Sequence record: OL956808.1
Strand: one strand, 5' to 3'
Origin: Escherichia phage vB_EcoM-S1P5QW
DNA: 64,000 nt
The notes below the pieces were generated by a model. The model searched no databases. It saw only the letters and a program-made list of their open reading frames with translations, and was not told where the DNA came from. Both the position numbers and the translations under genes were made by a program. Numbering within the stretch: position 1 is the stretch's first letter; every line of letters starts with the position of its first letter. This document shows positions 22,512 through 37,018 of this stretch, in pieces.

Positions 22512-22805
22512 ATGAAAAAATTTATTTTTGCTACAATTTTTACTTTGGCTTCTTGTGCTGCTCAGCCTGCTATGGCAGGTTATGATAAAGATTTGTGTGA
22601 ATGGTCTATGACTGCAGATCAGACTGAAGTTGAAACTCAAATTGAAGCGGATATTATGAATATCGTTGAGCGTGATCGTCCTGAAATGAAAGCTGAAGTA
22701 CAAAAACAGCTTAAGTCTGGTGGTGTAATGCAGTATAATTATGTTCTGTATTGCGATAAAAACTTTAATAACAAAAATATCATCGCTGAAGTGGTAGGTG
22801 AATAA
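22512..22805 (+). CDS. sp: Spackle (Sp) periplasmic superinfection-exclusion protein (probable)
   Basis: 97 aa with N-terminal signal peptide MKKFIFATIFTLASCAAQPAMA; T4 61.3 position. Confidence 0.75.
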   Translation: MKKFIFATIFTLASCAAQPAMAGYDKDLCEWSMTADQTEVETQIEADIMNIVERDRPEMKAEVQKQLKSGGVMQYNYVLYCDKNFNNKNIIAEVVGE

Positions 22806-23431
22806 TGCTTTATCAAATGCACAAGTGCAAAGATACATACAAATATAAAGGTGCCCAGTGTTATATCATTAATCGTGAAAACGCGGGTCCAGGTCATTCG
22901 CATCAATCACGGTTTGTATTCGTTAAAAACAATGAAATTATAGCAGTTGCTAATTACATGCTTGTGACTAATGATGTTAATCCGGTGCCTTTTACATATT
23001 ATAATCTAATGGATTTGGCGTACGATTATAATTGGTTTAATCATGACACTTTGGCTCATATCGAAGGCGTAGGATTTGACATCTCTTATTCTAGTTATTC
23101 GTTGTGTCCTATGAGCCGAGCTCATAAAGAGCCTGAATATTTTTCATTTCGTCGGCGTGTAGACTTTAAACGCAGTACAGAGTATGTCGGTGGAATCTTT
23201 GTTAAAGATAATCGAATTACTCGCATTATTTATCCTTTGGGCTGTGGTCAAAAAGATATTGATGTTGATTTAGACTTTACTGAAAACATCATTAATCATA
23301 TTGCTTCTGTATATTTTGATATTGATCACAAAATTGTAATATGTGGATATGAATTGCCATCTGAAAAACAGTCTAAAGTAAATGTTTCTATTGATGACCA
23401 AATTTTTAATGCTTTTATGAATAGAGGTTAA
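22805..23431 (+). CDS. Hypothetical protein (208 aa), T4 61.2 position
   Basis: ORF between sp and 61. Confidence 0.65.
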   Translation: MLYQMHKCKDTYKYKGAQCYIINRENAGPGHSHQSRFVFVKNNEIIAVANYMLVTNDVNPVPFTYYNLMDLAYDYNWFNHDTLAHIEGVGFDISYSSYSLCPMSRAHKEPEYFSFRRRVDFKRSTEYVGGIFVKDNRITRIIYPLGCGQKDIDVDLDFTENIINHIASVYFDIDHKIVICGYELPSEKQSKVNVSIDDQIFNAFMNRG

Positions 23432-23432
23432 T

Positions 23433-23597
23433 ATGAAAACATATAAAGAATTTATTAAAGAAGATATGGTCGCTGGAGATTCAGGCGGTAATCCTGAAAA
23501 TATCTCTACTGGAACAACGTCAGGCGCTGTAGTAAATAAAGGCCCTGAACAGATTCCTAAAAAGAAAAAAGAGGAATCTAAAGAAAAAGAAGAGTAA
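23433..23597 (+). CDS. Hypothetical small Lys/Glu-rich protein (54 aa), not in ORF track
   Basis: ATG 2 nt after previous stop; stop 2 nt before gene 61. Confidence 0.5.
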   Translation: MKTYKEFIKEDMVAGDSGGNPENISTGTTSGAVVNKGPEQIPKKKKEESKEKEE

Positions 23598-23599
23598 AA

Positions 23600-24628
23600 A
23601 TGTCATCAATACCTTGGATTGATAATGAGTTTGCATACCGTGCATTAGCTCATTTACCTAAATTCACACAAGTAAATAATAGTTCAACTTTTAAATTACG
23701 GTTTAGATGTCCTGTTTGTGGAGATTCAAAAACCGACCAGAATAAAGCTCGTGGATGGTATTATGGTGATAATAATGAAGGAAATATTCATTGTTATAAC
23801 TGTAATTATCATGCACCAATCGGAATATATTTAAAGGAGTTTGAACCTGATTTATATCGTGAGTATATCTTTGAAATAAGAAAAGAAAAAGGTAAAAGTC
23901 GTCCAATAGAAAAACCTAAAGAACTTCCTAAGCAACCTGAGAAGAAAATAATTAAATCTCTTCCGTCATGTGTTAGATTAGATAAACTGGCGGAAGACCA
24001 TCCAATTATAAAATATGTAAAAGCTCGTTGTATTCCAAAGGATAAATGGAAATATCTTTGGTTTACAACCGAATGGCCTAAATTAGTTAATAGCATAGCA
24101 CCGGGAACATACAAAAAGGAAATTTCTGAGCCTCGTCTTGTTATTCCAATTTATAATGCTAATGGAAAAGCTGAGTCTTTTCAAGGACGTGCATTAAAGA
24201 AAGATGCTCCTCAAAAATATATCACCATTAAAGCTTATCCTGAGGCAACAAAAATTTACGGTGTTGAACGAGTTAAAGATGGTGATGTATATGTTCTAGA
24301 AGGACCTATAGATTCACTTTTTATTGAAAATGGTATAGCTATTACGGGTGGTCAATTAGACCTAGAAGTTGTTCCATTTAAAGATAGACGAGTGTGGGTT
24401 TTAGATAATGAACCTCGTCACCCTGACACTATCAAACGAATGACTAAATTAGTTGATGCAGGAGAAAGGGTTATGTTTTGGGATAAATCTCCCTGGAAAT
24501 CAAAAGATGTCAATGATATGATTAGAAAGGAAGGTGCAACCCCTGAACAAATTATGGAATATATGAAAAATAATATTGCCCAGGGGTTGATGGCTAAAAT
24601 GCGGCTATCTAAATATGCTAAGATTTAA
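23600..24628 (+). CDS. 61: DNA primase gp61
   Basis: 342 aa; zinc ribbon CPVCGDS...CYNCNYH; Toprim region; matches recalled T4 gp61. Confidence 0.95.
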   Translation: MSSIPWIDNEFAYRALAHLPKFTQVNNSSTFKLRFRCPVCGDSKTDQNKARGWYYGDNNEGNIHCYNCNYHAPIGIYLKEFEPDLYREYIFEIRKEKGKSRPIEKPKELPKQPEKKIIKSLPSCVRLDKLAEDHPIIKYVKARCIPKDKWKYLWFTTEWPKLVNSIAPGTYKKEISEPRLVIPIYNANGKAESFQGRALKKDAPQKYITIKAYPEATKIYGVERVKDGDVYVLEGPIDSLFIENGIAITGGQLDLEVVPFKDRRVWVLDNEPRHPDTIKRMTKLVDAGERVMFWDKSPWKSKDVNDMIRKEGATPEQIMEYMKNNIAQGLMAKMRLSKYAKI

Positions 24629-24825
24629 ATCAACCCAACTAAAGCAAATGCTAAATCTACAAATGTATCAAGAGTAACTACTGGAATATTAATACCATGT
24701 GCAATTGCAATTGGTGATAAAATAAAGTTCCAGAGTAAAATTCCTACCATAGCAGAAATAGTAAAAGCTATACGTTTTTTATTACCTTTTATGGCATTAA
24801 CAAGTGCCATTAATTTTTGTACCAT
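24625..24825 (-). CDS. Hypothetical small membrane protein (66 aa) antisense to the early unit
   Basis: Two predicted TM segments; strong SD AAGGAGGA 4 nt before ATG; tail-to-tail stop overlap with gene 61. Confidence 0.45.
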   Translation of the reverse strand: MVQKLMALVNAIKGNKKRIAFTISAMVGILLWNFILSPIAIAHGINIPVVTLDTFVDLAFALVGLI

Positions 24826-24837
24826 ATGTCCTCCTTA

Positions 24838-24862
24838 TTGCTTTATATATTTATTGTATAAT
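24838..24862 (+). promoter_or_regulatory. Candidate MotA-dependent middle promoter for gene 56 (MotA box TTGCTTTA, 11-bp spacer, -10 TATAAT)
   Basis: TGCTT box at about -30 relative to TATAAT. Confidence 0.45.
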
Positions 24863-24896
24863 TAATCTACTAACCCATGAATTGAAAGGAAAAATA

Positions 24897-25415
24897 ATGG
24901 CTTACTTTAATGAATGTGCTCATTTGATCGAAGGTGTTGATAAAGCAAATCGTGCATATGCTGAGAATATTATGCACAATATTGACCCACTGCAGGTTAT
25001 GCTTGACATGCAGCGGCATTTACAGATTCGTTTGGCTAATGATAAACCAGAAACAAATCGTCATCCTGATTCACTTGAAACTGCAGGAGAAGTTCTTGCT
25101 TGGTTGCGAAACCAAGACGATTATATCGCAGATGAAACTCGCGAGCTATATACTTCTCTTGGTGGTATGAGTAATGGTGAAAAAGAAGCTTCTGCTGTAT
25201 GGAAACCTTGGAAGAAACGTTATTCTGAAATGCAATCCAAGAAAATTCAAGATTTATCTCCTGAAGATCAGCTTGAAATTAAATTTGAACTGATTGACCA
25301 ATTTCACTTTTTCATGAATAAATTTATTGCTCTTGGAATGTCAGCTGAAGAAATCTTTAAACTTTATTACCTGAAAAATGCTGAAAACTTCGCTCGTCAA
25401 GACCGAGGTTATTAA
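24897..25415 (+). CDS. 56: dCTPase/dUTPase gp56
   Basis: 172 aa from MAYFNECAHLIEGVDKA...; matches recalled T4 gp56. Confidence 0.9.
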   Translation: MAYFNECAHLIEGVDKANRAYAENIMHNIDPLQVMLDMQRHLQIRLANDKPETNRHPDSLETAGEVLAWLRNQDDYIADETRELYTSLGGMSNGEKEASAVWKPWKKRYSEMQSKKIQDLSPEDQLEIKFELIDQFHFFMNKFIALGMSAEEIFKLYYLKNAENFARQDRGY

Positions 25416-25615
25416 TGGCTCGTTTAAATAAGCGTCAGCTCAAGAAAGCCCATAAGAAACGTATTGACCAGCTATTTAAAGATTATAACAAGGAGCTCGT
25501 ATGTGAGCTCTTAACTAATCAACTTCGTATGGTTGATTGGGTTATAGAAGAAGGTCCTGACGAAATTTTTGTCAGCGAAGAAGCCTTAAAATTAATTATA
25601 GAGCATTCAAAATGA
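25415..25615 (+). CDS. Hypothetical protein (66 aa)
   Basis: ORF coupled to gene 56 stop. Confidence 0.55.
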   Translation: MARLNKRQLKKAHKKRIDQLFKDYNKELVCELLTNQLRMVDWVIEEGPDEIFVSEEALKLIIEHSK

Positions 25616-25821
25616 AATTTGATTTCTACGCGTGGCAAAAAGCCGGGAGACCGGCTACTCGAGCATTTGGTTCTGATGGATATAATATTAGAGCCCATTG
25701 GAAATTTAATGCTCCAGAAGATTATTCTCCGGTAATTATTAACGGCGATGTTGTTATATTAACTAAAATCGGGTATTTTAACGTTCCGCGAGAATTTATT
25801 ATAAATAATCATGTAATTTAA
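25612..25821 (+). CDS. Hypothetical protein (69 aa)
   Basis: ATGA-coupled ORF. Confidence 0.55.
   Translation: MKFDFYAWQKAGRPATRAFGSDGYNIRAHWKFNAPEDYSPVIINGDVVILTKIGYFNVPREFIINNHVI
25800..25807 (+). promoter_or_regulatory. Late promoter TATAAATA upstream of soc
   Basis: Exact TATAAATA 30 nt upstream of soc ATG. Confidence 0.55.
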
Positions 25822-25837: not shown

Positions 25838-26095
25838 ATGGCTAGTACTCGCGGTTATGTTAATATTAAAACATTTGACCAAGCAGTTGATGGTGGTACA
25901 ATTCAGGGTAAAGAAATTTCTGTAGCTTTCCCTCTTTATTCTGATGTTCACAAAATTTCTGGGGCTCATTATCAGACATTTCCTTCAGAAAAAGCAGCAT
26001 ATTCAACAGTATATGAAGAAAATCAGCGTGCTGATTGGATTACTGCAAATGAAGGTCTTTGGACTGTTACGCCAACTCCAGGTATTGGTGATTAA
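25838..26095 (+). CDS. soc: Small outer capsid protein Soc
   Basis: 85 aa; MASTRGYVNIKTF...SVAFPLYSDVHKISGAHYQTFPSEKAAYSTVYEENQR matches recalled T4 Soc. Confidence 0.85.
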   Translation: MASTRGYVNIKTFDQAVDGGTIQGKEISVAFPLYSDVHKISGAHYQTFPSEKAAYSTVYEENQRADWITANEGLWTVTPTPGIGD

Positions 26096-36644: not shown

Positions 36645-37018
36645 TTATGTTTAAAATCGGTAAGAAATATCGTATTCGCGAAGGCGAAGAAAAGAAATAT
36701 CTAATGTCTGCTATTTATAGGAATGGTTCTATTAATGCTGTAATATCTACAAGCGAATTTATCGTTGAAGATATGAAAGGTCATAATGTTACAATGATTA
36801 GTACAGCATCTGGAAATGATGGAAAAATTCTTCATAGTTGTCAGAGTAATGTTCTAATTTATGATGAAGAATTTGACTTCTTCAAAGAAGTTTCCGAAGA
36901 TTTTGATTTTGAATGTACTATTACTATGAAATCTGGTGACCCTCTTTCTTTTACAGTTAAAGATGAAAGAAGCCGTTTAAGAATTATTAGTCTCCTTCAA
37001 GCTATTAAATTTAAGTGA
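36641..37018 (+). CDS. Hypothetical protein (125 aa)
   Basis: ORF (GTG 36641 or ATG 36647). Confidence 0.6.
   Translation: MIMFKIGKKYRIREGEEKKYLMSAIYRNGSINAVISTSEFIVEDMKGHNVTMISTASGNDGKILHSCQSNVLIYDEEFDFFKEVSEDFDFECTITMKSGDPLSFTVKDERSRLRIISLLQAIKFK

Follow-up and report, generated by a model that had tools for sequence, protein, structure and literature searches.

The region described here lies within a stretch of 64,000 nucleotides of DNA from Escherichia phage vB_EcoM-S1P5QW (sequence record OL956808.1), referred to below as the window. It is centred on a short open reading frame (ORF) of the dam.1 family, which occupies the opposite strand between gene 61, encoding DNA primase, and gene 56, encoding dCTPase/dUTPase. 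The + strand of the window corresponds to the direction of early and middle transcription in T4, and positions 23600-25420 are 99% identical to many Tequatrovirus (T4-like) genomes. The features of the locus are collected in Table 1.

Table 1. Features of the region between genes 61 and 56 (positions are those of the window)
Feature	Position	Strand	Remarks
dam.1-family ORF	24625..24825	-	66 amino acids (aa), ATG start; predicted small inner-membrane protein, phrog_2024
Gene 61, DNA primase	23600..24628	+	phrog_47 (E 2e-106) and annotated relatives; convergent with dam.1
Gene 56, dCTPase/dUTPase	24897..25415	+	phrog_173 (E 2.4e-44) and annotated relatives
Shine-Dalgarno sequence AAGGAGGA	24829..24836	-	3 nucleotides (nt) ahead of the dam.1 ATG; read from the sequence
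Late-promoter-like element AATAAATA	24848..24855	-	predicted dam.1 transcription start near 24842
Predicted MotA-dependent middle promoter of gene 56	24836..24862	+	box 24836-24845, -10 TATAAT 24857-24862
8-bp hairpin followed by TAATTTTTGT	24791..24810	+	terminator-like; inside dam.1 codons 6-12

An initial annotation, made from the sequence alone, had described a 66-aa antisense ORF at this place, with a strong Shine-Dalgarno sequence and a stop codon overlapping that of gene 61. All of this is found. The Shine-Dalgarno sequence is 4 nt from the ATG when counted from its GGAGG core. The gene 61 TAA occupies 24626-24628 and the stop codon of the ORF lies opposite 24625-24627, a 4-nt tail-to-tail overlap in which both stops fall within ATTTAAAT (24623-24630). 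The distance between the gene 61 stop and the gene 56 ATG, given as about 270 bp, is 268 bp. The ORF had also been singled out as the only reverse-oriented gene of the early/middle block. To count opposite-strand coding sequences we used an annotated relative, phage G4507, which is 99% identical; its homologue, gp032, is the only one among the first 78 genes (41 kb). The observations of the initial annotation are confirmed with a single exception, the number of transmembrane (TM) helices, and its interpretation is only partly supported.

Identity, conservation and position of the dam.1 gene

The ORF product matches the phrog_2024 profile with an E value of 1.4e-31 (residues 2-66 against profile positions 1-65 of 65). 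It is identical at 64 of 66 residues to dam.1 of phage T4T (GenBank HM137666, T4Tp032, ADJ39749.1), with which it clusters, and the UniProt entry is named 'Uncharacterized protein dam.1'. The gene is not new, because it has already been catalogued, named and deposited. In hundreds of genomes, members of the family carry the name 'hypothetical protein'. A TBLASTN search with the window protein matched 692 phage records. Identity is at least 80% in about 502 of these and below 60% in 190 (about 43-57% among the matches listed). Nor is the ORF special to the window or to phages without dam: T4 has the same gene, in the same position and orientation beside gene 61, and it is this gene that is named dam.1 in T4T. 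The difference is that in T4 dam and its promoters (approximately 900 bp) lie between dam.1 and gene 56, where the window has only about 20 bp.

In the T4 reference record (NC_000866), the 309 bp that separate the end of gene 61 from the beginning of dam are an unannotated gap. This gap contains an unannotated dam.1 ORF (NC_000866.4, 17738-17938, +) identical to the window protein at 63 of 66 residues. Residue 25 of this copy is Thr, compared with Ala in T4T and other T4 records, and Thr is otherwise found only in run assemblies. The original 1984 T4 sequence record also has no gene annotated at the dam.1 site. The gene has been left unannotated in two further RefSeq genomes, JS98 (NC_010105; 1501-1701 of locus piece L027) and PEi20 (NC_028683; 1423-1608 of L031). 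Where product names are given, some appear wrong (for example, 'dCTP pyrophosphatase' in CGG4-1, 'DNA packaging ATPase' in UPEC01, MY02 and SAKp28, and 'Holin' in OE5505).

T4 is among the best-studied viruses, yet its reference record does not include this gene. Work based on NC_000866 therefore misses it too. One case is a transcriptome-wide CRISPRi-ART fitness screen of T4, whose guides were designed from NC_000866 and have no target between dam and gene 61, so that dam.1 was skipped. The function of dam.1 has apparently never been tested, in part because of this omission. A search of the searchable literature for 'dam.1' together with bacteriophage T4 gave no occurrence, a search of the T4 ribosome-profiling and small-protein literature gave nothing relevant to dam.1, and the phage transposon-mutagenesis papers found do not cover T4.

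Several lines of evidence concern the coding status of the ORF. The ratio of nonsynonymous to synonymous substitution rates (dN/dS; Nei-Gojobori method) is 0.1-0.25 in Tequatrovirus sequences and 0.07-0.13 in Mosigvirus; between genera, dS is saturated and dN is about 0.4. Variable sites are distributed over codon positions 1, 2 and 3 as 32, 6 and 44 (p = 1e-6). The initial annotation had proposed a comparison of the interval with relatives. In this comparison, which included T4 and T2, the ORF is conserved, and it is found under purifying selection in about 800 phage records. A 65-position profile run against 1.84 billion cluster representatives retrieved only 16 clusters, with members of 57-70 aa save for two short fragments (33 and 45 aa). 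The clusters inspected, distant members included, have in common a basic N-terminus and the core WN[FLY]x4Px5Gx3PxV; W32, N33, P38, G44 and G64 do not vary in the family alignment, and P48 and V50 hardly do. No Rfam family matches the interval between genes 61 and 56, apart from one chance miRNA hit far below threshold. Judged by these substitution patterns, the dam.1 ORF is a genuine protein-coding gene under purifying selection.

At least nine annotated T4-like genera have the gene. Its place is always between genes 56 and 61, where it faces the primase gene tail to tail and, in the T4-like cases examined, usually overlaps the stop codon of that gene. Metagenomic T4-like contigs have the same layout. 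dam.1 is present alone in the window, G4507, IME339, SF5 and Mosigvirus G2469, and together with dam in T4 and PD112. T2 (565-1110 of locus piece L024) and FJ1 (550-1110 of L022) have an extra ORF of about 181-186 aa between dam.1 and dam, with no similarity to the neighbours compared. Two tandem paralogues occur in Gaprivervirus VR26 and P479. In VR26 (1995-2401 of locus piece L006) these are an A copy of 65 aa and then a B copy of 66 aa, 8 nt apart, and the promoter-like sequence nATAAATA (see below) is found only ahead of A. Phage RZ carries one paralogue, the remnant of a second and a homing endonuclease gene, the last inserted between the B copy and the primase gene; the B copy is apparently without a start in RZ (~2250-2400 of locus piece L008) and in the locus piece L018.

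Subfamily B, whose members start with MGT[IL]FYQIWKL, occupies the same position in JS98, Marfa, ZX14, PM2, CGG4-1, PEi20 and other Klebsiella phages. It includes Dhakavirus JS98, Marfavirus, Kanagawavirus, Mosugukvirus, Gelderlandvirus, related Klebsiella phages and the second Gaprivervirus copy. It has the same length and the WN..P..G..P.V core, the same place and orientation by the primase gene and the same upstream nATAAATA. It differs in that identity is only about 20-23% and the C-terminal segment is too little hydrophobic for a TM helix. Both subfamily types are present in Gaprivervirus, in tandem and with one promoter. A search of the window with the family hidden Markov model revealed no paralogue. 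On the gene 56 side the neighbours vary by genus and are mutually unrelated; they include dam, the 181-aa ORF, a MazG-like 93-aa ORF, homing endonucleases and others.

The initial annotation placed the dam gene of T4 near genes 56 and 61, which is correct (in NC_000866 it lies between the two), and reported that dam is absent from the window. This was also borne out: the best TBLASTN match to T4 Dam has an E value of 0.92 and the DPPY motif occurs in no frame. The nearest motifs in the window are one DPPF and one SPPF, in short ORFs (68 and 90 codons between stops). The absence of dam is not an anomaly but a common insertion/deletion polymorphism. A T4-type Dam at 90% identity or more is found in about 182 phage records compared with about 502 with dam.1 at 80% or more, which makes the dam-less layout the commoner state. 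For the scanning of phage genomes the lesson is that the ORF is real but not new, and that the dam-less layout, being that of the majority of T4 relatives, needs no explanation. In the window, about 20 bp (24837-24856) stand in for the approximately 900 bp of T4 and, as a result, the predicted late promoter of dam.1 falls in the spacer of the gene 56 middle promoter.

The position of this replacement coincides with a mosaic boundary. Identity to T4 is 97% across gene 61 and dam.1 and falls to 74% from the gene 56 promoter on (24837-25420).

Predicted promoter and timing of expression

A late-promoter-like sequence, nATAAATA, is present upstream of the picked start in 15 of the 17 family ORFs examined. 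Its distance from that start is 4-22 nt, or about 13-22 nt if ZX14 is left aside. It is lacking in CGG4-1 and ahead of the downstream member of the Gaprivervirus tandem, which does not have a separate promoter. The window element, AATAAATA, matches the TATAAATA-type element at seven of eight positions and is conserved across genera. The same variant occurs in SF5, Mosigvirus and JS98; GATAAATA occurs in T4, T2, PD112 and PM2, CATAAATA in Gaprivervirus and PEi20, and the canonical TATAAATA in Marfa and ZX14. Among 50 T4 late promoters, 32 have a perfect TATAAATA and nine an A at -13, and most of the others have other single deviations (Geiduschek and Kassavetis). An A at -13, as in the window, is the commonest variant of the T4 late promoter in that list, and the -13 position is poorly conserved among T4-like phages (Nolan et al.).

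Homology between the window and T4 ends exactly between the Shine-Dalgarno sequence and nATAAATA, and the flanking sequences are non-alignable between genera; the motif is therefore kept independently of its context. The early and middle transcripts of T4 all run in the opposite direction. From this and from the conserved late-promoter-like element we infer that dam.1 is transcribed late and in a gp55-dependent manner, with the start indicated in Table 1. The 'late-timed' expression suggested in the initial annotation is in this respect reasonable. A T4 differential RNA-seq study (bioRxiv 10.1101/2024.04.04.588121) reports 22 antisense transcription start sites. As for translation, most of the family ORFs examined are preceded by an AGGAGG-type Shine-Dalgarno sequence, a few having weaker variants (GGAG, GGTGGA).

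A useful comparison is soc, a T4 late gene in the early region, which like dam.1 has a short leader, a strong Shine-Dalgarno sequence and a TATAAATA-type element about 20-30 nt upstream. It runs with the early genes, whereas dam.1 runs against them and has a one-mismatch variant of the promoter. In the window, soc (25838-26095, +) has a canonical TATAAATA at 25800-25807, 30 nt upstream, which is the expected soc late promoter.

On the other strand, the initial annotation had placed a MotA-box middle promoter for gene 56 in the interval. The sequence TATTGCTTTA, followed by an 11-nt spacer and the -10 element, fits the consensus, (a/t)3TGCTTtA located 12 +/- 1 bp from a -10 TAtaaT (PMC2988021). 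It also corresponds in architecture and position to P(M)16.53, the mot-box promoter of T4 record X01416. This predicted promoter overlaps both the dam.1 Shine-Dalgarno sequence and the predicted late promoter. The terminator scan also identified the + strand hairpin of Table 1, located about 165 nt past the gene 61 stop (fold -8.9 kcal/mol, z = -2.2). It may end gene 61 transcripts ahead of the gene 56 promoter. Its palindrome is not evident by eye in Mosigvirus and Gaprivervirus sequences, which makes its function uncertain. No - strand terminator past dam.1 was found in the scan of 23400-25600.

Predicted protein and possible roles

The claim that the ORF encodes a small membrane protein is supported: the gene is genuine and its product has one robust predicted TM helix, at about residues 19-42. 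The second of the two TM helices originally proposed fares less well, since the C-terminal segment is marginal in the subfamily of the window protein and not TM-like in subfamily B. With hand-entered Hessa-scale values the first helix sums to about 0 kcal/mol, with a Kyte-Doolittle mean of about 2. For the 18-19 residues at the C-terminus, D53 and D57 among them, the sum is +4 to +8 kcal/mol in subfamily A and +7 to +11 kcal/mol in subfamily B and PEi20. The window protein has five Lys or Arg residues N-terminal of the TM helix and none C-terminal of it (4-6 against 0-1 in the family), a distribution that indicates an N-in orientation. Its C-terminal part, ending in FALVGLI, carries two Asp. 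An AlphaFold2 model built from a 16-sequence alignment has helices at 2-12, 16-42 and 52-63 (mean predicted local distance difference test score 78.5). As modelled, the family protein is one with a single TM helix and a short amphipathic or re-entrant C-terminal helix rather than clearly two TM helices.

We consider it highly probable that the ORF is the dam.1-family gene of T-even-type phages, a real gene in a fixed place with a predicted late transcription and membrane topology and a conjectured role in the envelope. In such a scheme, gp55-RNA polymerase would transcribe dam.1 late from the variant promoter AATAAATA, read from 24855 to 24848, and the strong Shine-Dalgarno sequence would direct translation. 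The product would enter the inner membrane, leaving on the cytoplasmic side an N-terminal helix that is basic and amphipathic. The TM helix would bear the conserved W32-N33...P38 motif and would be followed by the conserved G44-x3-P48-x-V50 turn and by the short acidic amphipathic helix 52-63, at or dipping into the periplasmic face. We conjecture that it serves as an accessory envelope factor late in infection; it might, for instance, affect the timing of lysis, inhibit lysis or protect the envelope.

A number of results weigh against this reading or leave it without support from known proteins. Pfam, NCBIfam and PADLOC scans with four to six members gave no match even at E <= 1-10, a PDB profile search gave only noise (E > 1), and Foldseek comparison of the AlphaFold2 model with viral structures retrieved its own family only, the remainder having E > 0.1. 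No neighbouring gene is common to the T4-like and non-T4 contexts, so that guilt by association gives no indication of function. The C-terminal helix may or may not span the membrane. Concerning the promoter, the CGG4-1 lineage has only ATTAAATA, and T4's own motif is GATAAATA, which has a single deviation of a reported kind.

A more far-reaching proposal, which we advance tentatively and with some doubt, is that the dam.1 family is a deeply conserved late envelope component of T-even phages (for example, a holin/antiholin partner in lysis inhibition or a late membrane protection factor) that genetics and genome-wide screens have missed owing to its omission from the T4 reference. In this proposal, the constant location of dam.1, the one clockwise gene beside oriA and the primase gene, may also link its expression to late transcription that depends on replication. 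The gene is conserved, is the only one directed against an early/middle block of 41 kb and has a product that is probably a late inner-membrane protein; its study could bring to light an accessory step of late infection. The lysis, exclusion and toxin roles raised in the initial annotation are pure conjecture, and the product is probably neither a holin nor a toxin. In the comparison with type I toxins, the opposite strand bears read-through mRNA and not a defined small RNA, and there is no Rfam match.

The first alternative is that dam.1 encodes a moron-like membrane factor for superinfection exclusion or anti-defence and not a lysis component, which we regard as unlikely. The T4 interval between genes 61 and 56 is a hot spot for accessory cargo (dam, homing endonucleases, MazG-like ORFs), and the family members outside T4-like phages also occupy accessory positions. 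The T4 exclusion proteins Imm and Sp are likewise small, envelope-targeted accessory proteins, and sp itself lies in the window (22512-22805), only 2 kb away. However, imm and sp are expressed early and have the usual orientation, whereas dam.1 looks late; a window-wide search with the family profile, sp included, detected no sequence similarity between Sp and dam.1; PADLOC gave no match; and the non-T4 contexts are only three, with weak homology.

These contexts are accessory-gene positions and no mechanism can be drawn from them. In a prophage-like element (L033) the member follows a tail-tip gene and precedes an integrase gene. In an enterobacterial prophage (L032) it is at the very end, beside yegD-alkA. 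In a 2.2-kb metagenomic contig (L037) a 59-aa member (129-308) is located 17 nt upstream of a gene for a 352-aa RelA_SpoT-domain protein (325-1383); this member also matches a holin PHROG weakly (E 5e-4). In L032 (2980-4213) and L033 (4001-5082) the member lies within about 0.5 kb of homologous proteins of 179 and 196 aa, 29% identical to each other, the former with a weak match to phrog_1924 'minor tail protein'. This pair may form, with the family member, a small conserved module outside T4-like phages. Neither a single-protein scan for further prophage contexts nor a TBLASTN search of isolated phages with the two prophage members gave any additional examples.

A role at the level of RNA appears quite improbable as the main explanation. 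Here, a late clockwise transcript running antisense into gene 61 would disturb early/middle transcripts or oriA priming, and the peptide would be secondary. The gene is indeed always convergent with gene 61, usually overlapping its stop; the scan of 23400-25600 found no - strand terminator past the ORF; and the predicted late promoter overlaps a middle promoter that in T4 is the oriA primer promoter. Against this, codon position 2 is near-invariant, dN/dS is low and the motif is kept at 20-25% identity. Constraint at the amino-acid level shows that the protein itself is under selection. Members outside T4-like phages, moreover, have no primase gene nearby. An RNA role could exist besides that of the protein.

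The T4 holin is T, and t mutants do not lyse. Class II holins are defined by two clear TM domains and a charged C-terminal tail. A holin or pinholin-like function for dam.1 would agree with a product that is small, membrane-bound and probably late; in size (about 65-70 aa), membrane location and presumed late expression it is like class II holins and pinholins such as S21 of phage 21. The 'Holin' label of the OE5505 homologue, an unreviewed name in UniProt/BFVD, and a weak match of a distant member (P0118) to the holin family phrog_3427 (E 5e-4, 21 bits) point in the same direction. Yet dam.1 has one robust TM helix, the second being marginal or, in subfamily B, absent. Its charge is at the N-terminus; the C-terminal residues are hydrophobic, so that a charged cytoplasmic tail is lacking at that end. 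No endolysin or spanin gene is adjacent in any T4-like genome examined, there is no lysis cassette nearby, and the Pfam holin families are unmatched even at E <= 10. We therefore find this function hard to credit.

Finally, that the ORF is incidental to conserved + strand signals (a terminator after gene 61, promoter or origin elements) might be suggested by the hairpin within it and by the lack of a gene there in the T4 reference, JS98, PEi20 and 1984 records, but this is very improbable given the frame-specific substitutions and low dN/dS, an ORF intact with its Shine-Dalgarno sequence across lineages saturated at synonymous sites, a hairpin not evident outside Tequatrovirus and the lack of an Rfam match.

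Other features of the window

A second hidden antisense gene was considered at another TATAAATA (36712-36719, -). It was rejected: the only downstream ORF is wholly inside a + strand gene and looks spurious.

Downstream of gene 56, the window does not carry segF of T4. Between gene 56 and soc there are two small ORFs (25415-25615 and 25612-25821). Their G4507 homologues are called 'virion structural protein' and 'head protein' in RefSeq, names that look doubtful.

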